IMG/VR virus record: IMGVR_UViG_3300050821_003452
Span: 12,590-76,589 of that record
Strand: one strand, 5' to 3'
DNA: 64,000 nt
Source: a virus
Below are positions 24,249 through 52,730 of the stretch, one piece after another. Positions within the stretch are counted from its first letter, which is position 1, and each line of letters opens with the position of its first letter. A program made the translations under genes and the position numbers. The notes beneath the pieces were generated by a model. The model ran no database searches and was not told the DNA's origin. It worked only from the letters and a program-made list of their open reading frames with translations.

Positions 24249-24717
24249 TCATACCAGACCCAAAATTGTCAAAGATACTTCTCCACTCTCCAACAATAGG
24301 CAGACGATAGGTCTGCGCATCAAATGGCTTCGCGCCCAGCAGAAGCCATACATGACACAAACGCAACTGGCACAATTGGCCAAGATTTCTCAGTATAGTG
24401 TAGCGCATCTGGAGCTTGGTCGGGGAACAGATTTTAGAATTAGCACGCTGCGGAAGATAGCCAACGCCTTGGGTTGCGAAGTCTACATCAACATAAAGTC
24501 GAGACCATCGAGGGCTGAAGGGGAGTGTATGGTTCCAAGTCTTGAGTTGCCGCGCCCTGTAAGACCGAAGACCAAAAGCACGGCGAGAGGCCGGTGGCTG
24601 GCCGCAAAATTCCAACGTTCTTTTCTGAAAAAGGATCACCCGCTCGAACGGTTTCAAGAACGTGTAGACTTTTACGCAGCGAAGCGTTTGGCGCGCGAGG
24701 CCGAGAAGGACGAGTAG
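24235..24717 (+). CDS. XRE-family HTH regulator
   Basis: IGLRIKWLR...MTQTQLAQLAKISQYSVAHLELG...ISTLRKIANALG. Confidence 0.85.
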   Translation: MSEPSHTRPKIVKDTSPLSNNRQTIGLRIKWLRAQQKPYMTQTQLAQLAKISQYSVAHLELGRGTDFRISTLRKIANALGCEVYINIKSRPSRAEGECMVPSLELPRPVRPKTKSTARGRWLAAKFQRSFLKKDHPLERFQERVDFYAAKRLAREAEKDE

Positions 24718-25525
24718 AGTACCAAACATCCTTGCAGGCCGCGATCATCTGGCCAAATTCGACCGGCTCCATGCTGAAAGCAGCATCTGACCCGCCAATG
24801 GCGCGATCAATAATGAAGTGCTTCTCGATTATAGAGGCCCCAAAGGATACCGCGCCGCAAGCAGTACCAATGCCAAGAGTATGATCACTAAAGCCAACCT
24901 CATGACGGCCTCCAAGTAAACTTTTCAGGGGTCCTAATGCCGGCAAATTGGTGCCTGCTGGGTCAGCAGGGTAGTCCGATACGCAATGCAGTAGTGCCAG
25001 ATTGGACACTGACGAGAGACTGCCGGCATTATAGGCATTGATGGCGTCGATGATTTCTCGGGAAGTGGCCATGCCTGTAGATATAATTACAGGAAGGCCT
25101 GTGCTTGCTGCGTAGCGTATAAGGGGCGTGTCTATTAACTCGAAACTACTAATCTTTAAAGCTATACTATCCAGACTTGAGACTAAATCGACACCAGAGA
25201 AGTCAAATACAGATGAAAATAGCGGTATATTCTTGGTCTTGGCGTATTTGAATAGCTCCCGAACCATGTCGGGAGGCGTTTCTGCTTCTTTATACAGATC
25301 AAATAGCCTTTTTCCCTTCCACAGACCGCTCTCCAATACATAACCATCGTTTGCACAGAGCTTTTCTGCTGTATAACACTGGATTTTGATGGCATCAGCG
25401 CCTACGTCCATGGCTGCGTCCATGGTTTCGCATGCCGTCTTGACGCTACCGCCATGGTTGCTCGAAATTTCTGCCACTACATAGGGCAAATAGTCAGGAC
25501 CGATCTCTCGACTGCCTATTTTCAT
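24488..25525 (-). CDS. pseI: Pseudaminic acid synthase (NeuB family)
   Basis: VAEISSNHGG, DAIKIQ, KISSFE, IISTGMA, LLHCVSDYP, GFSDHTLG, IIEKHF, C-terminal SAF domain. Confidence 0.88.
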   Translation of the reverse strand: MKIGSREIGPDYLPYVVAEISSNHGGSVKTACETMDAAMDVGADAIKIQCYTAEKLCANDGYVLESGLWKGKRLFDLYKEAETPPDMVRELFKYAKTKNIPLFSSVFDFSGVDLVSSLDSIALKISSFELIDTPLIRYAASTGLPVIISTGMATSREIIDAINAYNAGSLSSVSNLALLHCVSDYPADPAGTNLPALGPLKSLLGGRHEVGFSDHTLGIGTACGAVSFGASIIEKHFIIDRAIGGSDAAFSMEPVEFGQMIAACKDVWYSTRPSRPRAPNASLRKSLHVLETVRAGDPFSEKNVGILRPATGLSPCFWSSVLQGAATQDLEPYTPLQPSMVSTLC

Positions 25526-25695
25526 TTTTCTAACTCACCCAGAAGCTTTGAAATCTTCTTATCGGCCTTACGGATGTTCCTGAGAACCATTTTAGTTCTA
25601 GTTGGAGCGCAATTAATGGCGATTTCCAATATTTTCATCCATAGGTCATTGTTTCTAGCCCTAATTTCCTTGATCTTATATAGTTTTTTTCTCAT
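25522..25695 (-). CDS. 57-aa hypothetical protein within the sugar cluster
   Basis: MRKKLYKIKEIRARNNDLWMKILEIA...; ATGA overlaps at both ends. Confidence 0.6.
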   Translation of the reverse strand: MRKKLYKIKEIRARNNDLWMKILEIAINCAPTRTKMVLRNIRKADKKISKLLGELEK

Positions 25696-26771
25696 AGGGC
25701 ATCTCTCAACTTGCTGACCATGGTGTTGATCTCTTCATCGGTTGGATCGAAAGCACATACCTCGAATAATACCATGCGATCTTCTACGTCTTCGACCGCA
25801 GGAAGCCAGATTTGGCGCGACTTGAAGGCTTTCAATTCATAGAGCGGTCTCAAATAGCCGGCCCTGAATGGCTCAGGTATTGGTTTTCTTGGTTTGGTTC
25901 TTAATTGCGCTCCCCAGACGTAGTAACTATGGGTACATCCTTGTCTGATGGAAGGTGGTATAAGAACATCATTGGGCGGAATTAAGTCGGTGATCTTCTG
26001 AGCCAGAGCCATCCTGCCGGCGATAATCTCTGGCGCTTTCTTAAGCTGCTCAATGGCCATAGCGGCAGTTATCTCCGTCATGCGCAGATTAAGGCCGGTT
26101 ATGCCCCCGCGCATTTCGCCATGGTTCATGGCCTCTCTGAGCTTGGTATCAAGTGTATTACTTGCTGTGACGACTATTCCTCCCTCGCCAACCTGAAGAT
26201 GCTTGTGGACGTTAAGGGAGAATACCCCCATATGGCCAATCGTGCCCGCATAGCGACCCTGCTCTTGAGCAAAAATCGACTGAGCATTGTCCTCAATGAG
26301 ATAAACTCCATGGTCATCACATATGGACCGCAATTCGTGAAGATGTGCGGCGTGGCCGAAAAGATTTGTGACGATCACTGCCTTGGTCTTTCGAGTAATC
26401 GAATTAGCCACGTCCACGGGATCAAGCGTGTAGGTCTCTCTCTCGATATCGGCCCAGACCAGCGTGGCGCCAAGTACCTTGGGTGCTGCCGCTGTAGCAG
26501 ACATAGTATATGGCGAGACAATGACTTCATCGCCGGGACCAACCTCGATAGCCATACAGGCCGCAAGCAGCCCAGACGTGGCGCTATTAACGGCAACGGC
26601 ATGTTTGATATCGAAGGCTTTCTCCCAGCCTAACTCAAGTTCAGTTATGGCCCTTCCACCAGTTGGGTGTGAGCCGATATATCCAGAGAGCGGATAACCC
26701 TCAATAATATGATCAGCCGCGCCACGCTCTGCATTCCCGATTGTATTGAAGCTCTTCATTATAGTTCTCAT
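25692..26771 (-). CDS. DegT/DnrJ sugar aminotransferase (PseC-like)
   Basis: VNSATSGL, LIEDNAQS, FSLNVHKHL..GEGG. Confidence 0.9.
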   Translation of the reverse strand: MRTIMKSFNTIGNAERGAADHIIEGYPLSGYIGSHPTGGRAITELELGWEKAFDIKHAVAVNSATSGLLAACMAIEVGPGDEVIVSPYTMSATAAAPKVLGATLVWADIERETYTLDPVDVANSITRKTKAVIVTNLFGHAAHLHELRSICDDHGVYLIEDNAQSIFAQEQGRYAGTIGHMGVFSLNVHKHLQVGEGGIVVTASNTLDTKLREAMNHGEMRGGITGLNLRMTEITAAMAIEQLKKAPEIIAGRMALAQKITDLIPPNDVLIPPSIRQGCTHSYYVWGAQLRTKPRKPIPEPFRAGYLRPLYELKAFKSRQIWLPAVEDVEDRMVLFEVCAFDPTDEEINTMVSKLRDAL

Positions 26772-26904
26772 GTTTCAGGAAATTGGCTCTAGCATCCTGC
26801 ATTGTTTTGCCACTACCAAGACAGATGCCATAACGAAATCCGCAATACCAAATCTTGGTTTCTTCATCTTGGATGAAAACATATTTCGGCAGGAATTTAA
26901 TCAT
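26713..26904 (-). CDS. Small hypothetical protein
   Basis: 63 aa, ATGA coupling to pseB. Confidence 0.45.
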   Translation of the reverse strand: MIKFLPKYVFIQDEETKIWYCGFRYGICLGSGKTMQDARANFLKHENYNEELQYNRECRAWRG

Positions 26905-27824
26905 AGCGTATCCCTTATCTCTTCCACTGAAAGAAAGCGCTCATTAGTATCGGATGAATATCTCATGCCGGGCTTGGTGTTATTCGTTGTATCCGGATTA
27001 AGGATATACCTATCCCAGCTTTCGAGGGCCATATGGCTTTCATCGTCTGTGATCAGCGTCTCATGCAGCTTTTCTCCGGCCCGAATGCCGATCATGGAGT
27101 GATTACCGCCCGGGTCAATCGCCTCTACCAAGTCCATGATATGGACAGAGGGTATCTTGGGAACGAAAATCTCGCGGCCCTTCATCATGCTCTCTGAAGA
27201 AAGAACAAAGTCCACCGCCTCGTCCAGCGTCATCCAGAACCGTGTCATGCGCTGGTCGGTTATCGTGAGAGGTAGACCCCGAGCATGTAGGGATTTGAAT
27301 AGGGGGACCACACTACCGCGACTGCCCACCACATTGCCGTACCGCACAACGCTGAACTGACACCGCCCAGCAGCCAGATTATTAGCGGCCACCATGATCT
27401 TTTCGGCTGCAAGCTTTGTCGCCCCATAGAGGTTAAGCGGGCTGACAGCCTTGTCGGTGGAAAGTGCGACAACTCGGCTAACACCAGTCGCCATCGCTGC
27501 CCTGCATACATTTTCTGCCCCATGAATGTTGGTCATCACCGCTTCGAATGGATTATATTCGCAAGTCGGCACGATCTTCAGAGCCGCCGCGTGGACTACA
27601 AGATCGGCTCCATACATGGCCATCTCAAGGCGCTTACGATCTCTTACGTCTCCTATGAAAAATCTCATGGCTGGATGATCAAAGTGATGCGCCATGGCCT
27701 CCTGAAGCTGCTCTCCGCGAGAATATATGATTATCTTGGCCGGTTCCATAGGAAGAACCTTGCGCACGAAGGCATTGCCGAAGGAGCCGCTGCCTCCGGT
27801 GATCAGGATAGTTTTACCTTTCAT
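26901..27824 (-). CDS. pseB: UDP-GlcNAc 4,6-dehydratase (inverting), PseB/FlaA1 family
   Basis: ITGGSGSFG, HAAALK.VPTCEYNPFE, LSTDKA, YGATK, VRYGNVVGSRGSVVP, MTRFW, GEKLHE. Confidence 0.92.
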   Translation of the reverse strand: MKGKTILITGGSGSFGNAFVRKVLPMEPAKIIIYSRGEQLQEAMAHHFDHPAMRFFIGDVRDRKRLEMAMYGADLVVHAAALKIVPTCEYNPFEAVMTNIHGAENVCRAAMATGVSRVVALSTDKAVSPLNLYGATKLAAEKIMVAANNLAAGRCQFSVVRYGNVVGSRGSVVPLFKSLHARGLPLTITDQRMTRFWMTLDEAVDFVLSSESMMKGREIFVPKIPSVHIMDLVEAIDPGGNHSMIGIRAGEKLHETLITDDESHMALESWDRYILNPDTTNNTKPGMRYSSDTNERFLSVEEIRDTL

Positions 27825-29791
27825 CGCACAGTTTTTCCCTTGATGACTTCACCTTCCAGTTTCACGCCGGCTGAAATGGCCTTGAGGGTGCTATCCCAAG
27901 CATAGATAACACGATCCAATTCTGGCTTATTGTGGGCGTAGCAGGTATTATGAGACCCTATGATCAGCACGCCATTCTTGGCCATCTCCTGAATGAAGAT
28001 GCTCTGAAGGTGTTTATCCCTGAACTTAATTCGGTTTAGTTCTGGACGTGAATATAACTCAATACCTTCGACACTATATTGCTTGATAAGCGTATTGATT
28101 TGTCCTCTGAGAACCTCTCCGACTGTAAATAATTTATCATGGACTTGGAGCGCGGTCAGCTTATCAATGGTGGCAATCGCTGCCGCAATCGAGAGCGTTT
28201 CCCCGAAGAAGGTCCCTGAATAAGAAATCTCAGGCATGCGCTTCATGTACTTCTCAAGACCTACAAGAGCGCTGATAGGCATGCCATTGGCCATGGCCTT
28301 GCCGAAGGTGGACAGATCGGGCGTGACACCATATTCGCGCTGGAGCCCGCCCATTCCGCAGCGGAAGCCAGTTATGATTTCATCGAAGATCAGAATGATG
28401 CCGGCATGATCACACTGCCGTCTTAGAAGCTCTAGCTCTTGTCGCGATTTGAACTCTGGCTCCAGTATAATAGCTGCCGGCTTTACGCTTTCGCTATCAA
28501 ACATAAAGGCATCAGGAATTGGCCTTGATAAGTTTTGCACATAACCCGGGATACCGTTAGTGTGCTCACTTACCGACATACTCCAATCGTGCCAACCATG
28601 ATATCCCCCGACATAGACCCTATCCCGCCCTGTAATATGTCTGGCAAGCCTTATGCCGGCAGTAGTCACGTCACTGCCGTTCTTGCCGAACCGAACCATT
28701 TCCGCAGATGGAATGTGGTAGTTTAGTTTCTCGGCAAGTTCCTCTTCCAGAGGCGTTGCCAATGAAAAAGAAATTCCTCGCGATAGTTGGTCCCGTATGG
28801 CTTGGTCAACGTCAGGGTCCCGATAACCAAGAACATTAGGCAGCAGGCCACCAACAAGGTCCACGTAGTCATGACCATCCACGTCGAACACATATCCACC
28901 ATCTCCATGGGTTACGAAAAGGGGCGCCACCCCTTCAGGGAACATTAGCTTGGATTTACTGAAAGTCTGCGCTCCCAGAGGAATAAGATGTTCTGCCTGT
29001 TTTAGGCACTGGGCAGATACCTTGTATGAGCGCGTGGTTGTTTCCCGCTTCAGGTCTTCGTAAAATCTCTCATTGCGCGAGAGATGCGAGTTAAGGTCTC
29101 TCAGCGCAGGATTAGCGGAGAGAACACCCAGAATATCCAGATAGCTGGGAGAATAATAAGAAACAGGTAGCAGATCGGAGACAGCTTGAATAAAAGCATA
29201 GTCTTCCGGACTATCGAGTACCCACCTTTCCCTAACCAGATCAGGAAGCGGACACACCAGATTAACGGCGCTAAAACGATAACGGTTGCGCACCATAAAA
29301 CGAGTGACAGTATCACGATCAGTTCTGCGAATGGCCTCTTTATTGGATGCTTCAAGAATAGCCCTAGTAAAGACTTCCACGTCAAGGCCATCTGGGTAGC
29401 TGGGTGGGTCTGTGTTTGTGGCGTAGTCTGCATTCTTCATTTCCCTTAACTTGATGACTTCACCAATGACGCGCGGGTCCAGAAACGGACAGTCGCCAGT
29501 TAGCCTTACGATAATGTCGGCATTATGTTGGTGCGCAGCCCCCAAGAACCGCGAGAGTACATCCGTCTCGGAGCCCCTGAAGACCGCAACACCTTTGGCA
29601 AGAGCCCACTCAACAATAGGATCGTCTTGCGGCAACGTCGAAGTCGCCACAACAACCTGATCCACGCCGGGGGATTGCTTGGCGGCTTCTACCACCCAAT
29701 CTAGAACTGGTCTACCGCTTAAGTCTTTAAGAACCTTGCCGGGTAGTCTGGTACTGCCCATACGGGCTTGGCATATCGCGACTGTTTTCAT
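27821..29791 (-). CDS. SpsF-type cytidylyltransferase fused to a class III (GSA-like) aminotransferase
   Basis: QARMGSTRLPGKVL, RGSETDVLSRF, RLTGDCP; then GAQTFSK, YHGWHDW, FDEIITGFR, FGKAMANG. Confidence 0.9.
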   Translation of the reverse strand: MKTVAICQARMGSTRLPGKVLKDLSGRPVLDWVVEAAKQSPGVDQVVVATSTLPQDDPIVEWALAKGVAVFRGSETDVLSRFLGAAHQHNADIIVRLTGDCPFLDPRVIGEVIKLREMKNADYATNTDPPSYPDGLDVEVFTRAILEASNKEAIRRTDRDTVTRFMVRNRYRFSAVNLVCPLPDLVRERWVLDSPEDYAFIQAVSDLLPVSYYSPSYLDILGVLSANPALRDLNSHLSRNERFYEDLKRETTTRSYKVSAQCLKQAEHLIPLGAQTFSKSKLMFPEGVAPLFVTHGDGGYVFDVDGHDYVDLVGGLLPNVLGYRDPDVDQAIRDQLSRGISFSLATPLEEELAEKLNYHIPSAEMVRFGKNGSDVTTAGIRLARHITGRDRVYVGGYHGWHDWSMSVSEHTNGIPGYVQNLSRPIPDAFMFDSESVKPAAIILEPEFKSRQELELLRRQCDHAGIILIFDEIITGFRCGMGGLQREYGVTPDLSTFGKAMANGMPISALVGLEKYMKRMPEISYSGTFFGETLSIAAAIATIDKLTALQVHDKLFTVGEVLRGQINTLIKQYSVEGIELYSRPELNRIKFRDKHLQSIFIQEMAKNGVLIIGSHNTCYAHNKPELDRVIYAWDSTLKAISAGVKLEGEVIKGKTVR

Positions 29792-30681
29792 ATTCCGGCC
29801 TTTGCTCTGATTGCCATGACTGTGTAGAGCGCCCTTACGCCGTCTTCGCCGGTAGCCAGAGGCTCAAGGTGTCTTCCCTGTTGTATGCTATCCAGAAAGC
29901 ACTTCATTTCGTCTATGTAATTATCATCCCATGTATCGCTGGCCTGAAACGCCATATGCGGCGGACCGCCACCCATTCGCATGTAGATTTCACGCAGAAC
30001 AAGATTGACGTAGATCGACCCTTTTTCGCCCTCTATCCAGAAATATCGCTGCTCTGGGTCTGAGTAATAATCGGCTTGCAGATAGACGTTTCCTTTGACT
30101 TTGGGGAACTTCATCTCTACAAAGGCATCAGTAGTGTCGTTACCGTTACTGTCCACAGGGACAGACGCGGAAACTACATCTCCTTCTCCCAACAAATAGT
30201 GAGCTAGATCAATCTCATGGCTGAGCCAGTTGCGAACGATGCCGTCCATCAAATATGGCGGCTTGGTTGTTTTTTGGTAAACCGTGAAGCTCGCGGCGAG
30301 AATGTTGCCGATGGATGGAAGCAATTCCTTAGTCTTCTGGACGCAATGGTGGAACCGAAGATTAAAGCCAGTGGCGATGATCAGGCTGCGGTCCTTGTAC
30401 CGAATGCCTTGCAAAAAACCATCGATTAACGGTGGGCAATCATAGCCGATTGGTTTCTCAACCAGCACATGCTTACCGGCATGAAGAACATCCATAAGAT
30501 CATGAGCATGGATTTTGCTGGGAGTGGCGATTACAATGGCATCTGCGTTTGTGAAAACATAGTCACGATACGAGGGCCGAGAAACTGATGGATCATATGC
30601 AACAAATTCATGACCGAGAAACTCAATATTTAGAGCATGCCGCGTGCCAATAGAGCCATATCCTAGAATTCCAATTTTCAT
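29788..30681 (-). CDS. Gfo/Idh/MocA oxidoreductase
   Basis: ILGYGSIG.RH, IATPS..H, HVLVEKP, GFNLRF, SHEID. Confidence 0.9.
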   Translation of the reverse strand: MKIGILGYGSIGTRHALNIEFLGHEFVAYDPSVSRPSYRDYVFTNADAIVIATPSKIHAHDLMDVLHAGKHVLVEKPIGYDCPPLIDGFLQGIRYKDRSLIIATGFNLRFHHCVQKTKELLPSIGNILAASFTVYQKTTKPPYLMDGIVRNWLSHEIDLAHYLLGEGDVVSASVPVDSNGNDTTDAFVEMKFPKVKGNVYLQADYYSDPEQRYFWIEGEKGSIYVNLVLREIYMRMGGGPPHMAFQASDTWDDNYIDEMKCFLDSIQQGRHLEPLATGEDGVRALYTVMAIRAKAGI

Positions 30682-31307
30682 TTCAGGTCCTCGACTGGCC
30701 ATCCTGCGCTCAGGTCCTTCTTCAGTACCCAGATAGCGGTGTCTTTGTCGGGCTTGATCTTCTTCACCAACGAGTAGGCCGGATTGGCCAGCCAGAGCTT
30801 GGAGTAATCCATCTTGTAAGAATAAGCGTCATCAAGGTGTTTATAGGGAACGCAATGAGGATGATCAGGATCAAAATCGTGGATGATCAAATACCCTCCA
30901 TCCATCAATGCATAGTCTCCGGTAGAAACTATTTGAGATAGATGATTTGGCTCACATAGATAGAGGCAAAACCCATAAATAATAATCCCGCATTCACCAT
31001 ACGGTTCTCGCGCGGTTCCAACTCTAAAGTGTAAGCTCGGAAACCTTATTGCGCCCGCCTCTATCGCGGCCCTTGATGGATCGCAGCCATAACATTCAGC
31101 GCCAGTTTTTAATCTTATTTGCTCTAGTCTCCAGCCATTGGCGCAGCCGTATTCCAAGATATCTCCCCGAGACCACAGCTTAACTACAAGCTGCGCAATT
31201 TCGTCATCCGGCTTTTCCATTTTGTGGAAATTGCGATTGAACCATGCATCTGCCTCGCCTTTAAGAAAGGCTTCTTCCTGCTTGAGCATGAACGGAAACA
31301 TTTTCAT
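30678..31307 (-). CDS. Class I SAM methyltransferase
   Basis: ILEYGCANG, GCDPS, GFCLY. Confidence 0.85.
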   Translation of the reverse strand: MKMFPFMLKQEEAFLKGEADAWFNRNFHKMEKPDDEIAQLVVKLWSRGDILEYGCANGWRLEQIRLKTGAECYGCDPSRAAIEAGAIRFPSLHFRVGTAREPYGECGIIIYGFCLYLCEPNHLSQIVSTGDYALMDGGYLIIHDFDPDHPHCVPYKHLDDAYSYKMDYSKLWLANPAYSLVKKIKPDKDTAIWVLKKDLSAGWPVEDLK

Positions 31308-32166
31308 TCTTGAGGATGATCATGAAGTTAGGCGAACACGCATAGAATTCACCAAATGTAGGCAATTGTGAGGCGATGGCATTGATCGGGTTATTATAAT
31401 CCGGTTCTACGCCCTGATCTTGGCATATTTTAGCGTAGATCACCCGCGAAGCCATATAATACATATGGCCGATGTTCTCGACATACTCTTGGGTCAAAAG
31501 ATGCCCTTGGATTTGGGAGATGAACTTCTGGAATTCGGCCTGCGGGATATAAAAATTATGCCAGCGCTCCTTTATGGCCGGCAGTCCCAGCCTTCCTCTA
31601 ACTGCGTTCAGGTTCTTCAGGCCCTCGTCTACGTTTTCTACTAAGATCATGCGGCCATCCTTGGAGAGTAGTTTTCGCATCTCCAAGATGCCGATCTTCT
31701 GTTCTTGCCAGTTAGCAAGATTGATCAGGCAGCGGGTAGATAAAACCACGTCAAAGGTGGCGCCCTGCAAGTGCCCATTTCTTGACAAAGAAAGTACATC
31801 GCCATCATAATAATCAATATTAGGCGCCAGATTATGCCTGATGGCTTCATTGATCATCCCCTGTGAGAAATCCACCCCAATAATCTCTGCATCAGGAAAG
31901 GCCTTGGCGAGAGCCAGCGTGGTGTAGCCATTGCCGCAGCCAACATCCAGAATGGTGTCGTGCTTCAGGCTGCCGACCACATGCAGGATGCGTTCGACTT
32001 CAAGCTGGCGATAATGATGATCAGGATTGGTAGCAAGATCAGAAGCGCCATGTTGTTTGGCCTGATCTTCCCAGAAGTCATGAACCGTTGCTGGTTGTTT
32101 CGGTTTGGGTGGCCTGCCCCGTTTTTTGGTTGATGGAGATAACTTTGGCTGTTCGGAACTTGCCAT
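31261..32166 (-). CDS. Class I SAM methyltransferase
   Basis: ILDVGCGNG, GVDFSQGMI, RCLINL; start uncertain. Confidence 0.85.
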   Translation of the reverse strand: MASSEQPKLSPSTKKRGRPPKPKQPATVHDFWEDQAKQHGASDLATNPDHHYRQLEVERILHVVGSLKHDTILDVGCGNGYTTLALAKAFPDAEIIGVDFSQGMINEAIRHNLAPNIDYYDGDVLSLSRNGHLQGATFDVVLSTRCLINLANWQEQKIGILEMRKLLSKDGRMILVENVDEGLKNLNAVRGRLGLPAIKERWHNFYIPQAEFQKFISQIQGHLLTQEYVENIGHMYYMASRVIYAKICQDQGVEPDYNNPINAIASQLPTFGEFYACSPNFMIILKNENVSVHAQAGRSLS

Positions 32167-33110: not shown

Positions 33111-33122
33111 GACTTTCTCAAT

Positions 33123-33674: not shown

Positions 33675-33692
33675 TGATTTCCCTCTCAAAAG

Positions 33693-42461: not shown

Positions 42462-42464
42462 ATC

Positions 42465-43088: not shown

Positions 43089-43100
43089 GGAGTAATCTAA

Positions 43101-44015: not shown

Positions 44016-44026
44016 GGAACAGGAAA

Positions 44027-44986: not shown

Positions 44987-44998
44987 GGAGACCATTTG

Positions 44999-45295
44999 AT
45001 GGCCAAGCACAGGCACGAAAAGCACAAAAAAGAGCATGAGAAGAAGGAACACTTCAAGCGTGGCGGGCACGTCAAGCTGGATGCCAAGGACGACCTCAAG
45101 GGCGCCGATGACTACTCTGGTAGCGGCAAGCCGGAAGTAGTGAAAGCTGCCGAGAGCCGTAAGGATAGCTTCAAGAAGGGCGGCAAGGTTATGGGCCACA
45201 AGTCCAAGGCCCGCATGGACAAATATGCCCGTGGCGGTCGCGCTGGCGGGTCCCCGTTCTCGTCTGCCAAGATCAAGGAAAATACGGCGGCTTAA
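44999..45295 (+). CDS. Basic protein with repeated [FY]xxGG motifs
   Basis: FKRGG, FKKGG, YARGG. Confidence 0.7.
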   Translation: MAKHRHEKHKKEHEKKEHFKRGGHVKLDAKDDLKGADDYSGSGKPEVVKAAESRKDSFKKGGKVMGHKSKARMDKYARGGRAGGSPFSSAKIKENTAA

Positions 45296-45297
45296 CC

Positions 45298-45480
45298 ATG
45301 GCCAAGAATTGGATAAAGGGAGCTATCAAACATCCCGGGGCTTTGCATAGTCATCTGGGTGTTCCGCAAGGTCAGAAAATTCCTGCATCCAAGCTTGCGA
45401 AGGCAAGTCATTCATCTAATCCGACTATTAAGCGCGAAGCCGCTCTTGCCAAGACCTTGAAGGGCTTCCACCACAAGTAA
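45298..45480 (+). CDS. Small basic phage protein
   Basis: WIKGAIKHPGALH..LGVP.G.KIP..KL..A...A.LAKTL. Confidence 0.75.
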   Translation: MAKNWIKGAIKHPGALHSHLGVPQGQKIPASKLAKASHSSNPTIKREAALAKTLKGFHHK

Positions 45481-45488
45481 GGAAGCTC

Positions 45489-45833
45489 TTGATGCCTATG
45501 ATGCCGGTCTACATTACCCTGAGTTCGACCGGAACCTCACGGGCGGTCAATCTCGACTATAATTCCAGAAGTCCATTCAATGTCTCCGTTGGTGTGACTT
45601 ACGGCTCCAGCACCATGACGGCGACCTATGGCGTGGAATACACGCTTCAGGACCCGCTCTATCAGAGCCTAATTGGCTCGACTGCCGCGCAAATCTGGAT
45701 CGCGGACGCCAATCTTCCTGCCGGCCAGACCGCGACCGGTACCACCAATTATATGTTTCCTGTGGCGGCTGTGCGCTGCACAGTAAGCGCAATCTCGTCT
45801 GGCTCAGTGACCTTCTGCGTGATGGAAGGATAA
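45489..45833 (+). CDS. Beta-rich virion protein
   Basis: TYGVEYT.QD, NYMFPVAAVR. Confidence 0.65.
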   Translation: MMPMMPVYITLSSTGTSRAVNLDYNSRSPFNVSVGVTYGSSTMTATYGVEYTLQDPLYQSLIGSTAAQIWIADANLPAGQTATGTTNYMFPVAAVRCTVSAISSGSVTFCVMEG

Positions 45834-45840
45834 CTGATGC

Positions 45841-46074
45841 ATGGCGGTTTCCCTTACAGGCATAACGGTCACGCTGCCATCGGTGGGCGTATCTTTAACT
45901 CCGACGACGCTTCAGTTACCATGGGGAGCGGTGTCTGAGAGTTTGTTGCTGACTGTGAGTATACCGGGATCGACTACTGGAGGATCAACAAGTAGTTCCA
46001 GTCCAACGCATACACTGATCTTCACTGGTTCCTCTAACTCGATGTATATTCCCTTGATGGGAGGCTTTGGCTAA
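45841..46074 (+). CDS. Small Ser/Thr-rich protein
   Basis: STTGGSTSSSSPT. Confidence 0.55.
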   Translation: MAVSLTGITVTLPSVGVSLTPTTLQLPWGAVSESLLLTVSIPGSTTGGSTSSSSPTHTLIFTGSSNSMYIPLMGGFG

Positions 46075-46912
46075 CGTGGCAGATAATTATACGGTAATAA
46101 ATTCCTGCGGCCAGACCATCACGATGAAGTCCATCGATATCGGCGGTGGGGTGGAAACTATTCAATCCATCCCAACCTCTACTGCTGGGACACCGCTTGT
46201 ACTGAACCCATCCAGTACGCCTACCAGCACCATGGCGGCGATGTTGGTGGCCATCTCTCCTAATGGAGTAAACGCCAACGGCCAAGCGACAATGGCCAAC
46301 TCGGCTCCTGTTACGATTGCCAGCAATCAGAGCGCTGTGGCGGTTAGCCTGTCTTCGGCTACCGTTACTTTATCCAGCAATCCAACAGTAATTCTATCGA
46401 GCAACCCCACGGTTATTCCATCATCTGCGATACAAGTTACCCTGACAAGCAATGTGGTCGCCGTATCCTCTGGAACAGTAACTCTCTCATCCAACCCAAC
46501 AGTCATTCCATCCAGCGCCCTTACCGTTGGCTCTGGAAATATTTCATTGGTGCCAACCACCACGGGTGGGCTTTCGCTATCTTCTGTAATCATAGCGAGC
46601 GGGACCAATTCCACGCTGGTTAGCTCGTCCCCCAGACAAATCTACAAGGTGGAGTGTTTCAATAACACGGCCACCATCGGTTATCTGCATCTCTACAATC
46701 TATCCAGCGCGCCAACCGCTGGTAGTTCTCTTGTATTCGATAGATATCTGGTTCCGGCCAACACCAGTGGCGCAGGCGTCATCTCGGAACTTGTCAATGG
46801 CGTGTCATATGCGACGGGGATTGGATATACCTTTACTGGAGGTATTGCAGATAGCGATACCACGGCCATCTCTTCAAATGCTTCCTATATCGTGAATATT
46901 TACTATAAGTGA
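46067..46912 (+). CDS. Ser/Thr-rich virion protein with LSSNPTV repeats
   Basis: GQATMANSAPVTIASNQS; VTLSSNPTVILSSNPTVIPSS. Confidence 0.7.
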   Translation: MANVADNYTVINSCGQTITMKSIDIGGGVETIQSIPTSTAGTPLVLNPSSTPTSTMAAMLVAISPNGVNANGQATMANSAPVTIASNQSAVAVSLSSATVTLSSNPTVILSSNPTVIPSSAIQVTLTSNVVAVSSGTVTLSSNPTVIPSSALTVGSGNISLVPTTTGGLSLSSVIIASGTNSTLVSSSPRQIYKVECFNNTATIGYLHLYNLSSAPTAGSSLVFDRYLVPANTSGAGVISELVNGVSYATGIGYTFTGGIADSDTTAISSNASYIVNIYYK

Positions 46913-46920
46913 GCATGTAA

Positions 46921-47751
46921 ATGGCCACTTATTTTTGTGTAAACAGTTCACTAGGACAGACTTGGAATAGCAGTAATACTGTTATGTGGTCTACCACCAG
47001 CGGGTTGACTTCGGTTCCTGCTGGACCACCACAGGCCGCCGACACGGCTACATTTGATGGAGCGTCTGGCGGCGGCACAGTCACGGTTGGTTCCAGCATC
47101 AACACCACTAACACCGTGTCTATTTTGACCATGGGAGCCTTCACTGGAGCGCTGGATTTCAGTGTAAACAACATCAGCCCAACCATAGGGACCATGACTA
47201 ATTCCGGAACCGCAACCCGAACTCTTAATATGGGAAGTGGCACTTGGACAATAACCGGAAATACTGGAAACCCTTGGAATTTTACAACGGTTACCGGCCT
47301 AACTCTAGTTTCAAGCCTGTCCACAATATTACTATCCGCCACGGCGGCGGGATCAAGAACCCTTCAATTCGGGGGGACGACAATCAACAATCTATCCATC
47401 TCAAACCCATCTAGGAATAATTTACAGGTCAGGTTTGCCGATGCTGTGACGGTGGGCGGGTCTCTCACGATAAGCAATGTTGGGAACGTCCGCGTGGACG
47501 CCGCATTAACAGTGACTGGGGCTTGGGCATTTGATGGTACTTCTACAAACCCAGCGGTTCTTTATTTATCAGCACCGACGACGTTTACTGTGGGTGCCGC
47601 AAATACTTGGACGTGGATATATGTACAAAATATAACCAAGGCCGGCGCCGGCTCAATTACCGCCAATAATTCTTTCGATGGCGGCTCCAACACCAACATC
47701 ACCATTAATTCACCACCCTCTGGTGGTGGCGGGGGTATAATTGGTGGATAA
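46921..47751 (+). CDS. Beta-helical adhesin-like virion protein
   Basis: W....WSTTSG....AGPP.AADTATFD, TRTLNMGSGTWT. Confidence 0.65.
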   Translation: MATYFCVNSSLGQTWNSSNTVMWSTTSGLTSVPAGPPQAADTATFDGASGGGTVTVGSSINTTNTVSILTMGAFTGALDFSVNNISPTIGTMTNSGTATRTLNMGSGTWTITGNTGNPWNFTTVTGLTLVSSLSTILLSATAAGSRTLQFGGTTINNLSISNPSRNNLQVRFADAVTVGGSLTISNVGNVRVDAALTVTGAWAFDGTSTNPAVLYLSAPTTFTVGAANTWTWIYVQNITKAGAGSITANNSFDGGSNTNITINSPPSGGGGGIIGG

Positions 47752-50700
47752 TGACGGTTGGAATACTCAATATTGCCGCCGCCCTAGCACCTTCTTCTGG
47801 GTTTAACGGCGGCCAATCCCAGATGAATATGAGCCAGCTTAACTTTGCTGCTGTCCCATTCATTAATCTCGCCAAGACCGCCACGCTTCCGACAATTAGT
47901 TCTGCCGATGCCAATAATGGCTTTATCGTCAGCCCTAGTTTGCAGGACGCTAATGGCTATGCAACGTCACTTCCAGTTGGAGCCACGGGTACTCGACAAA
48001 ATGCCCCAATCGTCAACCCATCGGCGCGCGGAACGACGCCTATTGTGGTCCGGTGGATTGGCTCATGGACGCTGACGGGTTCGGCTGGAACGGCGGTTTC
48101 TAACAATGTCACAGCGGCCAACAACAGCACGACCGTCACGCTCACGGTCGGATCGCCCCATTATTATCGTGCTGGACAGGTGGTAGCACTTTCCACGTTT
48201 GCCGCGCCGTTCACTGGCTTCAACGGGCACACCTACCAGATAGCATCCACCACGACGACGACGATCACGCTGACCGGAGCGGATAGTTCTGGCTTTGGTG
48301 CTTATGTCTCAGGTGGCACCGTAACCAACTCTCTCTTGGCAGGAACTACGGGCGGTAGGTACGTCTACACTCCGGCAGAGATCGCAATCACGGCTATTAG
48401 CTCACCTAATGTCCAGCTAGGTTTCTCCGTTACGGGGTCAACTCCGGTCAGCGAGATCGAGGCGATGTACGTTGACGAAGAGGCGGCCTATGACGCCGGT
48501 GCTGTATTTTCTCCAAAGTTCATAAGTTTGTTGCGCGATACATTGCGCGTAGGAAAAATTCGCTTTCTCGACTGGCAGGGTGGATCGAGCGGAGCAAACA
48601 ACTCCAACGTCACAACGTGGGACACGGCGAGCAAACCAGAAACCTATGTAAGCTATGCGGGCGACTGGTGGGACCTTAACCGCTGGGTACCGACCGTCAC
48701 CGTTGGAACTGGACCACCCACATCGGCCACAGGTTCTACGCAGGACTACGCGATCACTGTTGGCAGTGGCAACTTCACCGACAAGCAGACTATCCAGCTT
48801 CGGTTCCCGCTGACCGCGAATGCAAATTCCACGCTGACTTGGAGTGGAGGCACCGCCACCGTGACTACAGCATCTCCACATAATGTGCCAACCGGGTTGC
48901 TTTTTCCCGTTATCATTGCGGGGGTGACGGCCACAGCCTATAACGGAAACTTTACTGCGACATCGACCGGCGCTAGCACATTCACCTACGCACTTGCCGC
49001 CAGTCAGTCCGACGCGACCGTTCCCGGCACCTATGCCATCCTTGTCAACTCCATGCAGAAGAACGTCACGCTGTCCGGCACGGTCGGAAGCGGGGCCTTG
49101 CAGGTGGCATGGCCGGCCCACGGTTTTTCGAGTGGCACGCCACTTGTCGGGTTTCCGACGAGTGGCAGCACGCAATTGCCAAACCCAATAGCATTCAGCA
49201 CGACCGTCTATGTTGGAACAGTCGTTGATGCCAACACTTTTAATTTGTCGCTAACTGCTGGTGGCGCGGACATTATTAGACAATCGACTGGGGCCACTGC
49301 TGCTACTTTTGTGCGGCCAGCAACGCTTTCAATCAATGGCAATACGCCTGTTCCAATCAAGATTGGATATGGAGATGCGGCTACTGCTGGGGCGCAACCG
49401 GACAATGCGAGCTACAGCACGGTCGTCTTTGACGCAGCCATGAACTCGCTTCTGCTATGGAAGCACTCTTCAAATGGTGGGGGCATTATCAACGGCGTCC
49501 CGCCATCGCTGATGTTCCGGCTATGCAAAGAAGTCGGCGCTCACTGTTGGTTTGTCACTCCGTTCCTAGCCGCCGAACCGATGACAGATTACATAGCGCA
49601 ACTTATGACGGCAGGTAAAAATTATGCAGCATCCAACGCCCCGTGGATGATGATTGGGATCGAAGGACCAAATGAAACATGGAACAGTGGGCCCAACTTC
49701 TTCGCCACCCGTTACGCTTGGAATAAATCCTACATCAATTGGCCCCCATCTCCTTCAAGCACCAACGCCGGGTTTGATCATGATAACTGGTATGGCAAGG
49801 TAATCTCAACTATCGGACAGGACGCTAATACGGTGTTCGGCGGCAATACTACTAAATACGATGTTTATTTGGGTGTCAGAGAGTCGAATGGGGGCGTGCC
49901 GACGCTAAATGATCCGCGCCTGAAGGCTACTGCCTATGCTGCCCAATCAGCACCAGCGCAATCTGGATACAACAAAAATCCCGGCTATATGTATGCCACT
50001 AATGGCTGTACAGCGGGGTATTTTGGCCCCGGCTTCTACGGATGGCCTCCCGAAATGCCGCTAGCCTACGACTTCGCCGTCAACGGCAACGCTGGTGCGA
50101 TGACCACCTATCTTGCCAGTTACACGGTCAGTGGCATGCACACCGGCAGCTTGGCGACACTTGCAACCAGAATTAGTGGGACGGCAACATACTTTGCGGG
50201 ACCATGGGGGACTGGTCCAACCTACACGCTTGGCCTTCAAGGGTATGAAGGTGGTTCCGATGCGGAAGACGCCGCAGGTAACAGCACATCGGTCGTGACC
50301 GCCGCGACGAATGACGCGACCGGAGCGGTGCTAACGATGCCGACCGCTTTCATCACCGGCAATAATCTGGGAACCGCTCAATCTAACAGCCCAACCAACG
50401 CGGCGGCAGTCGGCATGATGTTTCAGGTGACTGGAGCAGCAGGCGGAACATGGGGCAGCTTGATAACCGGGGCAGCACAGAGCCAGAACGTCAGCGCCAT
50501 CAGCGGGGCAGATATTCCATACACGGGGACTGCCATTGTGGGGCAGGGCGTTAATTTCACAGTAGGTAACACAAGCTCGACGCTGCCGGCCAACCTTGTC
50601 AATGGCGTCACCTATTACATTGTCAGCGTCAATGCCGGGGTTTCGCTTGAGGTTTCGGCCACTAAGGGTGGCTCGCCAATCAGCCCGAGCGGAGGCACAG

Positions 50701-51071
50701 GCCAGATCACCGTGCAGCCGGGCTGGGTTGTGAAGGCTATCAATGTCGGCAGCGATCCGCTTAAGGTGCAGATTGACGTTGATAGCTCCGGCTTTGGTAC
50801 CTACACCGCAAGTTCTGCGACTGTGACCTACATCAACGGCATCAATTATCTGAACTCGCTCCGTCGCGCAGTTCGAACAAGTTCACTATTGCAGAACTAC
50901 TACTACGGTGGGGCCTCATCCTACATCGGAACATGGACAACGGCAGGGGCGACTTGGCCGTCGCATTACCACTTCTTTGGTGCGCTCAATGATCCGTGGG
51001 GAATTTTTGAACCTAGTTCCTACGCCACGATTTCCCCTTCTGGGTTGGCCATAGCGGCATTTAATGCCTAA
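47751..51071 (+). CDS. Large receptor-binding/tail-spike protein with a GH-A-like glycoside hydrolase core
   Basis: IRFLDWQ, LCKEVGAHCWF, IEGPNETWN, YEGG; interspersed TASPH...NG.F beta modules. Confidence 0.65.
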   Translation: MTVGILNIAAALAPSSGFNGGQSQMNMSQLNFAAVPFINLAKTATLPTISSADANNGFIVSPSLQDANGYATSLPVGATGTRQNAPIVNPSARGTTPIVVRWIGSWTLTGSAGTAVSNNVTAANNSTTVTLTVGSPHYYRAGQVVALSTFAAPFTGFNGHTYQIASTTTTTITLTGADSSGFGAYVSGGTVTNSLLAGTTGGRYVYTPAEIAITAISSPNVQLGFSVTGSTPVSEIEAMYVDEEAAYDAGAVFSPKFISLLRDTLRVGKIRFLDWQGGSSGANNSNVTTWDTASKPETYVSYAGDWWDLNRWVPTVTVGTGPPTSATGSTQDYAITVGSGNFTDKQTIQLRFPLTANANSTLTWSGGTATVTTASPHNVPTGLLFPVIIAGVTATAYNGNFTATSTGASTFTYALAASQSDATVPGTYAILVNSMQKNVTLSGTVGSGALQVAWPAHGFSSGTPLVGFPTSGSTQLPNPIAFSTTVYVGTVVDANTFNLSLTAGGADIIRQSTGATAATFVRPATLSINGNTPVPIKIGYGDAATAGAQPDNASYSTVVFDAAMNSLLLWKHSSNGGGIINGVPPSLMFRLCKEVGAHCWFVTPFLAAEPMTDYIAQLMTAGKNYAASNAPWMMIGIEGPNETWNSGPNFFATRYAWNKSYINWPPSPSSTNAGFDHDNWYGKVISTIGQDANTVFGGNTTKYDVYLGVRESNGGVPTLNDPRLKATAYAAQSAPAQSGYNKNPGYMYATNGCTAGYFGPGFYGWPPEMPLAYDFAVNGNAGAMTTYLASYTVSGMHTGSLATLATRISGTATYFAGPWGTGPTYTLGLQGYEGGSDAEDAAGNSTSVVTAATNDATGAVLTMPTAFITGNNLGTAQSNSPTNAAAVGMMFQVTGAAGGTWGSLITGAAQSQNVSAISGADIPYTGTAIVGQGVNFTVGNTSSTLPANLVNGVTYYIVSVNAGVSLEVSATKGGSPISPSGGTGQITVQPGWVVKAINVGSDPLKVQIDVDSSGFGTYTASSATVTYINGINYLNSLRRAVRTSSLLQNYYYGGASSYIGTWTTAGATWPSHYHFFGALNDPWGIFEPSSYATISPSGLAIAAFNA

Positions 51072-51121
51072 ATCGGACTTGCACCGATAGAGGTTTATAT
51101 ATCGAAAATGGTAATCAATAT

Positions 51122-51430
51122 ATGACCATTGGACTTCATCAAGTAGCTAAGCCATCCACGCTGGTAATCACCGGAACACCAATAACTGTGACTCAAATCA
51201 ACGTGCCATATACTGGATTTAGCGTCATCGGAGATGGGGGTACACCCCCGTATATATATTCTCTTACCAGCGGAACATTCCCACTTGGGTTAACCATAAA
51301 TTCTTCCAGCGGTCTTGTAAGCGGGACGCCTCTGGCGGTAATATTGTCATCCAGCCTTACGCTTCAAGTAACCGATAAATATGGAAGAACCGCTCAACTG
51401 GCGTCTTTTTCCATAAATGTGACGCTCTAG
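51122..51430 (+). CDS. Ig-like (He_PIG-type) domain protein
   Basis: GGTPPY.YS..SG.FP.GLTINSSSG.VSGTP, QVTD. Confidence 0.75.
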   Translation: MTIGLHQVAKPSTLVITGTPITVTQINVPYTGFSVIGDGGTPPYIYSLTSGTFPLGLTINSSSGLVSGTPLAVILSSSLTLQVTDKYGRTAQLASFSINVTL

Positions 51431-51488
51431 CATTTAGCATTAGTACCGTGATATCTTCTTATGCCACAATAACCTTTCCGACCAATAA

Positions 51489-51854
51489 ATGACTATCAGT
51501 TACACCACGCCGACGATTAATAATCGCCTTCAGGAGGTATTAAATAGTATTGGCCCAGTTGGGGCGATGCGCTTGCTGACAAGTACAAACCAAACAGTGG
51601 GATTAATATCTCTCGCTAACCCTGCCGGCACTATAAATGGCGGCGTCCTGACATTTACCACCCCCGTTTCAGCCCCGCTGACGTTTATTAGTGGCCAAAT
51701 TGTGGCTGCTGATATAGAAGACGGCTCAACCAATGTGGTTGCTTATGGACTTACTGTAGGCAATTCCACTTTGTACGATATCGTCATGACGGCTACCACG
51801 GTAAGCTCTGGCCAGATCGTGACTATGACCTTCGGAACCATTACGGGGAAATAA
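51489..51854 (+). CDS. Virion structural protein
   Basis: GVLTF, GLTVG...DIV...TTVSSGQ.V. Confidence 0.65.
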   Translation: MTISYTTPTINNRLQEVLNSIGPVGAMRLLTSTNQTVGLISLANPAGTINGGVLTFTTPVSAPLTFISGQIVAADIEDGSTNVVAYGLTVGNSTLYDIVMTATTVSSGQIVTMTFGTITGK

Positions 51855-52730
51855 ATGGACAGCATCGCCAAGCTCACGCCAACCGGCACTGAATTGCTCA
51901 AAAACGGCAAGGCTCATGCCGGCAAAAGAGGGCGCCCACGAACCAAACCGTCCAATTTTGTCCAATTAACGCACTCCATTATTCCTGAGAAGCCAGCTAC
52001 CCAGCAAGCGCAGATCGCTCAAATTGAGCAACCTAAGCAACCCCTCAAAATCGCCCTGATTGGTACTGCGCCGTCCTCACGGGACCTCGCACCATTTAAC
52101 GATCCATCTTGGACCATCTGGGCCTGTTCGCCCGGGAATGCCCACGGCACGCTGCCTAGGGTGGATACATGGTTTGAAATCCATTCCAACCTGATGTGGC
52201 CTGAATGCGTATCCTACGGGGCGCCATATGTGGAATGGCTGAAACAGCAGAAATTCCCGATTTATATGCAGGATCAAAGACTTGTTCCTAATGCCACGCC
52301 GTTGCCAATCCAAGAATTAGTCAACGAATTCGGCAAATACTTCTTTACTTCCAGTTTTGCCTACATGCTGGCCATGGCCATCAAGGCCGGCGCTGACGAG
52401 ATATCCCTATTCGGCATCGATATGGCGTCCAAGGACGAATATATCCTTCAGCGTCCGGGCGGTCATTATTTCATGCAGGAAGCCGCCAAGCGCGGCATCA
52501 AGGTCAACGTGCCCTTTGAGAGCGACCTTGCCCAGCACCCTCCGCTTTATGGTTATGACAGCAGCACCCCATTTGGGCGCAAACTACATGTCAGAAAAGT
52601 GGAAATCCAGAACCGGGTTGCCGGCATGGAAGCCGAACTAGCGAAACTCAACCACAGTATCGCCTATCTGAAGGGTGCCTTGGAAGATTTAGATTATGTC
52701 TCTTCCATATTTGGGGGCCTCCAAACCTGA
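51855..52730 (+). CDS. Maf/sialyltransferase-like (GT29/GT42-like) putative glycosyltransferase
   Basis: KIALIGTAPSS...IWAC...D.WFEIH; TSS.AYMLAMAI..GADEISLFGIDM. Confidence 0.55.
   Translation: MDSIAKLTPTGTELLKNGKAHAGKRGRPRTKPSNFVQLTHSIIPEKPATQQAQIAQIEQPKQPLKIALIGTAPSSRDLAPFNDPSWTIWACSPGNAHGTLPRVDTWFEIHSNLMWPECVSYGAPYVEWLKQQKFPIYMQDQRLVPNATPLPIQELVNEFGKYFFTSSFAYMLAMAIKAGADEISLFGIDMASKDEYILQRPGGHYFMQEAAKRGIKVNVPFESDLAQHPPLYGYDSSTPFGRKLHVRKVEIQNRVAGMEAELAKLNHSIAYLKGALEDLDYVSSIFGGLQT

Follow-up and report, generated by a model that had tools for sequence, protein, structure and literature searches.

Does a phage make a sialic-acid-like (nonulosonic) sugar and attach it to its own particle? The question is raised by a 64,000-nucleotide stretch of DNA from an uncultured soil phage (the window; bases 12590-76589 of the 76,589-bp IMG/VR record IMGVR_UViG_3300050821_003452, a 76.6-kb virus record that is 100% complete according to CheckV). 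This window carries a leftward cluster of sugar genes resembling a pseudaminic acid (Pse) pathway (24488-32668, minus strand) and, far to its right among the structural genes, the gene of a 291-amino-acid protein, P0001 (51855-52730, plus strand). A model that saw only the letters of this DNA (the sequence-only reading) had proposed that the two parts act together in the glycosylation of the virion. We favor, with a probability of about 0.5, the reading that they form a phage-encoded nonulosonate O-glycosylation system directed at the phage's own virion proteins, a system whose donor, catalysis, acceptor, and benefit we infer. Because a gene of transferase fold lies among putative particle genes that are unusually Ser/Thr-rich, the phage probably sugar-coats its own particle.

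P0001 is a candidate CMP (cytidine monophosphate)-nonulosonate protein O-transferase on the basis of its predicted structure, of natural gene fusions in its family, and of co-occurrence with NeuB. The AlphaFold model, built with 34 homologues, had a predicted local distance difference test score (pLDDT) of 80.7 (>90 across most of residues 61-230) and consists of a disordered N-terminus (1-60), an alpha/beta core (63-228), and a long C-terminal helix (239-286). The top match of this model among 48,161 chains compared by VIA-align was Maf of M. magneticum [5mu5; Z 11.5, root-mean-square deviation (rmsd) 2.9 A, 154 residues], residues 61-227 of the model being aligned with residues 270-499 of 5mu5, which form the central modified GT-A domain. 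The second was Cst-I of C. jejuni (2p56; Z 10.4, rmsd 3.4 A, 153 residues), and Foldseek ranked 14 CstII/Cst-I chains first (best 1ro8_B, E 1.2e-5, probability 1.0). Judging from this model, the assignment of P0001 to the Maf/GT42 fold is right. The sequence-only reading had compared the protein with Maf, GT29, and GT42 because of a signature that is indeed present in the translation as quoted (KIALIGTAPSS and AMAIKAGADEISLFGIDMAS); Maf and GT42 proved to be the best structural matches and GT29 enzymes weaker ones (Z near 7), but P0001 is not a member of Maf, GT42, or GT29 at the level of sequence.

A full HMMER profile search (E ≤1e-3) collected 4327 representatives of the P0001 family (clusters at 50% identity), and none of the 845 close relatives of P0001 has a Pfam domain. 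The ESM Atlas neighbors of P0001 are 90-100% viral. Its composition is ordinary (S+T 11.3%). Residues G70, H110, G187, E195, and Y232 are invariant in the phage family, and H110, E108, S166, D189, and E195 are invariant or nearly so. The sole echoes of P0001 among sequences of the PDB are GT42 sialyltransferases; they are below significance (E 0.17-0.97 by HMMER) and confined to one motif, the donor-site segment (T-S...YM.A.AI..G..EI.L.GID), in which T165/S166, G187-I-D189, and Y196 of the family stand opposite the T-S, the G-I-D, and a Tyr of GT42. CstII also has phosphate-binding Tyr residues, and any counterpart in the phage family of its catalytic base, His188, is putative. Among 34 family members, no match to the GT42 Pfam model was found at E ≤10, while the Maf model PF01973 was touched weakly by 13 of 34 relatives (E 0.039 or worse), its gathering score of 34.6 bits not being reached. 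A search for longer fused forms of P0001 returned one uninformative protein of 525 amino acids.

Three independent lines link the family to CMP-activated ulosonic acids. The first is gene fusion. P0257 (492 amino acids) consists of a CTP_transf_3 domain joined to a P0001-family domain, and a targeted search found nine distinct 90%-identity clusters with such a cytidylyltransferase-transferase fusion (475-513 amino acids, mutually 59-100% identical), all of which carry cytidylyltransferase Pfam domains that NCBIfam places among the KdsB/PseF-type CMP-ulosonate synthetases. A viral-contig scan with P0257 gave no match, and a genome-contig scan with the fusion alignment gave only cellular SpsF/PseF-like cytidylyltransferases. 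The second is co-occurrence as counted from the family gene. The IMG/VR relatives of the phage are contigs of ~65-77 kb, many of them with direct terminal repeats, and 14 of the 15 near-complete ~75-kb relatives have NeuB, while all 15 have the cytidylyltransferase-aminotransferase fusion described below; the single relative lacking NeuB still has PseB, PseC, this fusion, the oxidoreductase, a methyltransferase, and the GNAT gene. Both NeuB and cytidylyltransferase were also found in a separate 85-kb clade and in the fragment G032. The third line is co-occurrence in the reverse direction: phage records outside the 75-kb clade were picked by NeuB similarity alone (n = 34) and searched with the family profile, and 22 of the 34 carry the P0001 family, as do 16 of the 20 that are at least 90% complete. 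These carriers have genomes of 42-94 kb, and the family gene often lies 2-5 kb from NeuB. In one distant locus (L230), the genes for cytidylyltransferase, NeuB, PseB, portal, the transferase homologue, and homologues of its two downstream neighbors (dn1 and dn2, see below) stand in one co-directional string. A locus search with a single PseI protein as query returned no loci. Of the 2.9 million contigs in IMG/VR, pattern scans picked out no more than a few hundred for either family; the overlap between the two is therefore far beyond chance. Co-occurrence across related phages had been suggested as a check by the sequence-only reading; it is strong in both directions, and the natural fusions come in addition. 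The fusions and the two-way co-occurrence tie the P0001 family to CMP-ulosonic acids.

Several further observations on these genes were made. P0240, a metagenomic protein of 504 amino acids, has a different fusion partner, an N-terminal PhyH-like Fe/2-oxoglutarate dioxygenase domain (a weak match, E 0.0014, below cut-off), which might point to a hydroxylated sugar or acceptor. In the 85-kb clade (L248, L249; G029, G028), the NeuB-like genes encode only ~217 amino acids and have a Pfam match that is split and, in G028, contains a TGA, so they may be truncated, frameshifted, or broken. In the 75-kb clade, the N-terminus of the transferase candidate (residues 1-60, 51855-52040) opens with a conserved A-K-L-T-P-T-G-T-x-L-L-K, of which T8 and P9 are nearly invariant, and continues as a variable, Pro-rich, disordered linker; the conserved peptide might be a docking or sorting signal. 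At least two family copies are present in several phages (in tandem in L075, 3619-5480; also in G041, G049, G051, and G056), which would fit several donors or acceptors. In the phage collection, P0001 has no match at the DNA level and a single one at the protein level, in Microcystis phage Mvi-Yong1342-1, which is the one member of the family that was found in a cultured phage. This homologue (PP496355.1, 34781-35584; L001:7902-8705) was deposited as a "type 11 methyltransferase," a name that looks wrong because the family has no Pfam methyltransferase signal.

The donor sugar would be supplied by the cluster on the minus strand, whose genes were assigned by Pfam and NCBIfam scans (the latter with the curated cut-offs). 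PseB, the inverting UDP-N-acetylglucosamine (UDP-GlcNAc) 4,6-dehydratase (26901-27824, 307 amino acids; Pfam Polysacc_synt_2, 326 bits), scored 421.7 with TIGR03589, above the cut-off of 407.75. The synthase of the NeuB family (24488-25525, 345 amino acids; Pfam NeuB, 227.5 bits) is PseI-like, as its best NCBIfam model was PseI (TIGR03586, 310.8, below the cut-off of 340.25) and NeuB_NnaB reached only 239.5. For the DegT/PseC-like sugar aminotransferase (25692-26771, 359 amino acids; Pfam DegT_DnrJ_EryC1, 213.6 bits) the best NCBIfam model was PseC (161.6 against a cut-off of 423.5), and the GNAT N-acetyltransferase (32078-32668, 196 amino acids; Pfam Acetyltransf_3, 64.7 bits), a candidate for the PseH step, scored only 20.4 bits with TIGR03585 (cut-off 93.1); the PseC and PseH models are thus the best or sole specific matches of these two genes, both far below cut-off. 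A protein of 656 amino acids (27821-29791) joins an N-terminal CMP-ulosonate cytidylyltransferase (CTP_transf_3, residues 4-125, 102 bits) to a class-III aminotransferase (Aminotran_3, residues 289-618, 146 bits; both from Pfam). Its open frame (673-743 amino acids) is kept in every ~75-kb relative. The cytidylyltransferase is assigned to the PseF type at the family level only (CTP_transf_3), and canonical PseF has no aminotransferase fused to it.

The remaining genes of the cluster would serve in tailoring. They encode a GFO/IDH/MocA-type sugar oxidoreductase (29788-30702, 304 amino acids) with both the N- and C-terminal Pfam GFO_IDH_MocA domains, whose weak NCBIfam matches are inositol and UDP-GlcNAc 3-dehydrogenases, and two S-adenosylmethionine-dependent methyltransferases. 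One of these (30678-31307, 209 amino acids; weak matches to Pfam Methyltransf_23/25/11) has homologues in two relatives (G005 and G049); the other, of class I (31261-32199, up to 312 amino acids; Pfam Methyltransf_25/31/11/12, E 1e-17 to 1e-13), overlaps the GNAT gene, and its true start probably lies farther downstream, past the shared stretch. No glycosyltransferase was found inside the cluster by Pfam or NCBIfam. Judging from these family assignments, the pathway is Pse-type, one hydrolase short, with four extra tailoring activities. The genes that the sequence-only reading had named were all recovered, at the coordinates it gave, by Pfam, NCBIfam, and translation, and its remark that the cluster holds no glycosyltransferase was borne out. 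Its call of a Pse-type pathway stands as far as PseB (above cut-off) and the synthase (PseI the best model) are concerned, but PseG is absent and PseC and PseH are assigned only at the family level. Homologues of NeuB ~38-39% identical to the phage PseI-like enzyme were also seen in IMG/VR on contigs of giant-virus metagenome-assembled genomes (GVMAG; L268, L270, L277, L281, and L303).

Candidate acceptors are suggested by the surroundings of the transferase gene. When proteins with S+T of at least 22% and at most 12% charged residues were taken as Ser/Thr-rich and charge-poor, 13 predicted proteins qualified. The plus strand of the late region encodes them all (42465-60710, except for one at the other end of the genome), whereas no gene qualified among the 74 that lie to the left of window position 34000. 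The median S+T and charged fractions are 18.2 and 9.7% for late genes, and 11.7 and 21.8% for genes left of 34000. A run of such genes on the plus strand (those starting at 42465, 44027, 45489, 45841, 46067, 46921, 47751, and 51122) surrounds the major head gene (42465-51430; S+T 22-36%, D+E+K+R 1-10%); the product of 47751 has 1106 amino acids, and that of 51122 contains a He_PIG Ig-like domain (E 2.6e-10). Another late protein, of 99 amino acids (55514-55813, plus strand), is likewise Ser/Thr-rich (32%) and charge-poor (3%).

The closest neighbors of the transferase gene, all on the plus strand, are conserved with it. Upstream and with no gap lies up1 (51489-51854, 121 amino acids; S+T 26.4%, charged 6.6%; no family match), which adjoins the transferase homologue in 58 of 81 related loci (tblastn). 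Downstream lies dn1 (52793-53347, 184 amino acids; S+T 26.6%, charged 9.8%), which directly follows the homologue in 64 of the 81 loci and, by hidden Markov model search, also follows the family gene in the 85-kb clade, L075, and L230. The small gene dn2 (53350-53607, 85 amino acids) was found in 58 of the 81 loci and follows dn1 in the distant locus L230 as well. The model of dn1 is a single jelly roll (pLDDT 79.8, predicted template-modeling score 0.80) that matches a Bacillus Ena pilus subunit (Z 8.4), the cement protein of phage KHP40, the HHIV-2 virion chain 6h82_b, and the satellite-virus (STNV) coat protein (Z 7.9 each), and the HFTV1 turret (Z 7.2), with picornavirus coat proteins found by Foldseek (E 3e-5). 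We regard dn1 as a candidate acceptor; from this model, it is also plausible as a virion surface protein of the cement or decoration kind.

The same setting was seen in all clades examined, in which the family gene lies inside the head, packaging, or tail module and abuts or overlaps structural genes. In L331, L332, and similar loci it stands immediately upstream of the large terminase gene (the terminase gene of L331 is followed by those of the portal, the head protein, and small Ser/Thr-rich proteins), and in L230 immediately after the portal gene. In other NeuB-bearing clades, a small Ser/Thr-rich protein is encoded just before the family gene and another after the major head gene; the upstream one is unrelated to dn1 (hhalign probability 0.4%). 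Gene position and composition together point to virion proteins as putative acceptors. The Ser/Thr-rich virion proteins of the sequence-only reading are real in composition, as the 13 proteins confined to the late region attest, and putative as members of the virion; for the two acceptors it had singled out (the products of 44027 and 46067) the evidence is no stronger than for dn1.

The packaging and structural proteins recognized as such by a family match are limited to the large terminase (34055-35761), the portal protein (35770-38601), and the major head protein (43101-44015, phrog_371). The window DNA has no match in cultured phages, and most late proteins have none there either. In the 81 related loci, 46067, 46921, and 47751 have almost no homologues, in contrast to the conserved head protein and transferase block; the segment 46067-51071 looks hypervariable and is possibly a host-recognition region. 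The product of 47751 matches E1_FCCH weakly, and that of 53610 has a Gly_rich_2 domain. A role of the former as tape measure was considered and set aside; its composition is rich in Ser, Thr, Ala, and Gly and poor in charge. In the nonulosonate-pathway phage G032, three genes downstream of the transferase-dn1-dn2 block, a Ser/Thr-rich, charge-poor protein of 736 amino acids (L230:7694-9904) contains BNR/Asp-box and Sortilin-Vps10 repeats, as in a sialidase-like propeller. An HNH endonuclease gene (41964-42461; phrog_99, E 1e-45) is inserted into the head module, where a Ser/Thr-rich gene and then the major head gene come next downstream, and a GroES-like gene is also encoded in the window. Transcription of the sugar cluster runs in the direction leading away from the structural operon, which is read rightward and is set apart from the cluster by two tRNA genes on the minus strand [tRNA-Ile (anticodon TAT), 32673-32747, and tRNA-Ser (TGA), 33693-33780], between which an open reading frame of 188 amino acids (33123-33689) has no family match.

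If the phage glycosylates its own virion proteins, the following route can be proposed. The leftward cluster would convert UDP-GlcNAc through PseB, the PseC-like aminotransferase, and then the GNAT, the PseG hydrolase step presumably being provided by the host or by an unrecognized enzyme, and the PseI-like synthase would form a 5,7-diamino nonulosonate. The cytidylyltransferase half of the fusion would activate this sugar to its CMP form, and the fused class-III aminotransferase, the GFO-type oxidoreductase, and the two methyltransferases would tailor it. P0001, as a cytoplasmic, stripped-down Maf/GT42-like enzyme with a modified GT-A core, would then move the sugar from CMP onto Ser/Thr of the late proteins, either ahead of particle assembly or in the course of it, analogous to the action of Maf on flagellin before export. 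The prime candidate acceptor would be dn1, with other Ser/Thr-rich, charge-poor late proteins as further candidates, and the C-terminal helix (239-286) may oligomerize or dock the enzyme. The acidic sugar would lend charge to otherwise charge-poor surfaces; shielding and adhesion are other, speculative benefits.

Several points weigh against this reading. The phage is uncultured and known from sequence alone, and its Ser/Thr-rich late proteins are putative virion components placed by position and composition. Because the fold matches of dn1 are middling (Z ~8), we treat its role as a virion surface protein as no firmer than plausible. P0001 has no Pfam match (even at E ≤10) and no PHROG match, and its neighbors gave nothing usable in such scans either. 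Comparison by hhalign with four genuine Mafs from Firmicute nonulosonate islands (448-646 amino acids) was insignificant for both of its alignments, the close A1 and the broader A4; the probability was 6.6% in one comparison and 0.7% in the other, with only one motif of 27-29 columns aligned, the motif that also aligns with GT42. The catalytic residues of M. magneticum Maf are Asp324, Glu415, and a conserved Ser (bioRxiv 10.1101/2020.06.03.131540); any equivalents of these, or of the catalytic residues of CstII, in the phage family are putative. PseG (TIGR03590) gave nothing at E ≤1 across the whole 76,589-bp genome, whereas control genomes gave matches. The co-occurrence counts take no account of shared ancestry or of gene movement as one module, and four near-complete NeuB phages lack the family gene. 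Conversely, the sequence-only reading had regarded relatives keeping the gene with no link to nonulosonate pathways as evidence against it; most relatives do show that link, but four phages of 41-51 kb (G019, G020, and G030, each at least 96% complete, and Microcystis phage Mvi-Yong1342-1) have the family gene with neither NeuB nor cytidylyltransferase (CTP_transf_3). Maf enzymes are donor-promiscuous and O-link CMP-activated N-acetylneuraminic acid (Neu5Ac) and 3-deoxy-D-manno-octulosonic acid (Kdo) to Ser/Thr of flagellin in the cytoplasm (bioRxiv 10.1101/2020.06.03.131540; PMC4065374), and because they accept CMP-Kdo and CMP-Neu5Ac, the carriers without a pathway would be compatible with a donor taken from the host.

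The fold superfamily also holds enzymes that are not glycosyltransferases, so that the fold alone leaves room for P0001 being one of them. The next structural matches after Maf and Cst-I were indeed MptE HPPK (Z 9.8), SteA (9.2), and the thiamine pyrophosphokinase TPK1 (8.0), which are near the scores of the first two, and the weak Pfam echo, PF01973, spans MptE and Maf alike. A P0001 that is a pyrophosphokinase of the MptE/thiamine-pyrophosphokinase kind or a SteA-like regulator, acting on an intermediate of the sugar pathway as its missing step or elsewhere, would be in keeping with the lack of a significant sequence match to any characterized transferase and with the missing PseG; co-occurrence with NeuB and fusion to cytidylyltransferase would likewise be expected, or at least possible, for an enzyme of the pathway. 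We nevertheless consider it unlikely. Both of the top-scoring structures are transferases that use CMP-ulosonates, Foldseek puts 14 GT42 chains first, the sequence-level PDB echoes are only to GT42 and fall on the donor-binding segment, and the genomic context holds no folate or thiamine genes. In addition, a pathway enzyme is hard to square with a gene that in this phage is placed among structural genes, several kilobases away from the pathway, and that is present in phages without the pathway.

Less likely still is that the same CMP-nonulosonate (or CMP-Kdo) transferase modifies the host, with flagellin, pilin, S-layer, lipopolysaccharide, or capsule as acceptor, to block superinfection or change motility. 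The evidence from fold, fusion, and co-occurrence is silent on the acceptor, the known acceptor of Maf is flagellin (bioRxiv 10.1101/2020.06.03.131540), phage enzymes that alter nonulosonate-containing capsules of the host are known (PMC12053666; PMC6586298), and the sugar cluster lies on a leftward operon beside non-structural genes. The transferase gene itself, however, was always in the structural module and never with early or lysogeny genes in the clades examined, and its conserved neighbors encode phage proteins with the composition of O-glycosylation substrates. P0001 also lacks the N- and C-terminal helical domains of full-length Mafs (609-646 amino acids), and remodeling its surface would bring little gain for a cell near lysis, assuming a lytic lifestyle. 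A part for P0001 in DNA packaging or modification, whether as a partner resembling a small terminase or as an enzyme that modifies DNA, is very improbable. In its favor, the family gene directly adjoins that of the large terminase in L331, L332, L333, L334, and L337, where no separate small-terminase gene intervenes, the Microcystis-phage homologue precedes a small terminase and bears its methyltransferase name, and P0001 ends in a coiled coil as small terminases do. Against it, a distance of 18 kb separates the window gene, which has tail-side genes around it, from the terminase, and that of L230 comes after the portal; the alpha/beta core is enzyme-like, its G, H, D, E, and Y residues being invariant, and P0001 has no DNA-binding domain; the methyltransferase name has no Pfam support; and the cytidylyltransferase fusions and the NeuB linkage would be left unexplained. 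The small-terminase role was set aside because the gene is placed differently with respect to the terminase from one clade to another.

Returning to virion glycosylation, a wider proposal can be made tentatively, at somewhat less than even odds: the P0001 family may be a phage-wide enzyme of "virion sialylation," by which many unrelated lineages of tailed phages would O-link CMP-activated ulosonic acids to small Ser/Thr-rich surface proteins of the head or tail, covering particles otherwise poor in charge with an acidic sugar. Phages with a pathway would use the Pse/Leg-type sugars that they make themselves, phages without a pathway would use CMP-Kdo or a nonulosonate of the host, and the sugar of the present phage would be an undescribed aminated and methylated acid of the pseudaminic type. 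If this is true, the use of sialic-acid-like sugars, known from bacteria, archaea, and giant viruses, would extend to tailed phages, which would carry them on their own particles, and this would bear on the surface charge and stability of phages in soil and water, on their recognition by immune systems and lectins, and on their adsorption to mucus and minerals. It would also recast the many "auxiliary" NeuB/Pse genes annotated in viromes. The P0001 family would be a new, compact family of nonulosonate protein transferases, of which very few have been characterized (PMC5420450), and its members could become tools for glyco-engineering.

Full-text searches of the literature turned up no phage particle reported to bear a nonulosonic acid, no phage-encoded nonulosonate glycosylation of virions, and no phage structural module described as encoding an enzyme of the Maf/GT42 fold; the work they did return concerns phage proteins that bind or edit host nonulosonate glycans or bind flagella. 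Among the known systems, Maf (PF01973; 5MU5; Geobacillus and Clostridium Mafs) is the closest. Its central modified GT-A domain is the best structural match of P0001, both proteins are soluble and cytoplasmic (as predicted for P0001) and are genetically linked to Pse/Leg-type pathways and cytidylyltransferase, and the presumed acceptors of both are Ser/Thr-rich surface proteins. The promiscuity of Maf toward CMP-Neu5Ac and CMP-Kdo could account for the phage carriers without a pathway. In contrast to the three-domain Mafs of ~610-650 amino acids with helical N- and C-termini, P0001 has 291 amino acids with one core and a single C-terminal helix; it stays below the PF01973 cut-off, and the profile comparison with Maf is insignificant. 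Whereas Maf genes belong to glycosylation islands for flagellin, the phage gene lies in head or tail modules in every clade examined, a flagellin gene is absent from the phage, and the P0001 family is almost entirely viral.

The GT42 sialyltransferases (CstII, 1RO7/1RO8; Cst-I, 2P56; Pasteurella multocida ST, 9C08) are the top Foldseek matches of P0001, have a similar size (~260-300 amino acids), and share with it an N-terminal G-x-x-P-S loop and the donor-site segment. They differ in that the sequence similarity is below significance, that they sialylate lipo-oligosaccharide glycans and not Ser/Thr of proteins, and that the invariant H110, E195, and Y232 of the phage family form a pattern of its own. 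MptE HPPK and the thiamine pyrophosphokinases (8SD5, 9HJC) belong to the same fold superfamily, and PF01973 spans MptE and Maf, whereas the phage family is linked and fused to CMP-ulosonate genes, has no pterin or thiamine context, and matches these enzymes with lower structural scores than Maf and Cst-I.

Glycosylation of virions by virus-encoded enzymes has precedents. The O-glycosylation of capsid and tail-tube proteins by phage glycosyltransferases was reportedly described in mycobacteriophages by Freeman and colleagues in 2023, and the glycosylation of capsids and fibrils in chloroviruses and giant viruses uses virus-encoded sugar pathways (chlorovirus review, PMC7019647). Like the system proposed here, these have a glycosyltransferase of their own and at times their own nucleotide-sugar pathway, act in the cytoplasm, and have Ser/Thr-rich structural targets; unlike it, they use GT-A or GT-B enzymes whose donors are UDP- or GDP-sugars (among them hexoses, rhamnose, viosamine, and bacillosamine). 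The proposed system would be an extension of two known kinds, Maf-type nonulosonylation of proteins and virus-encoded glycosylation of the virion.

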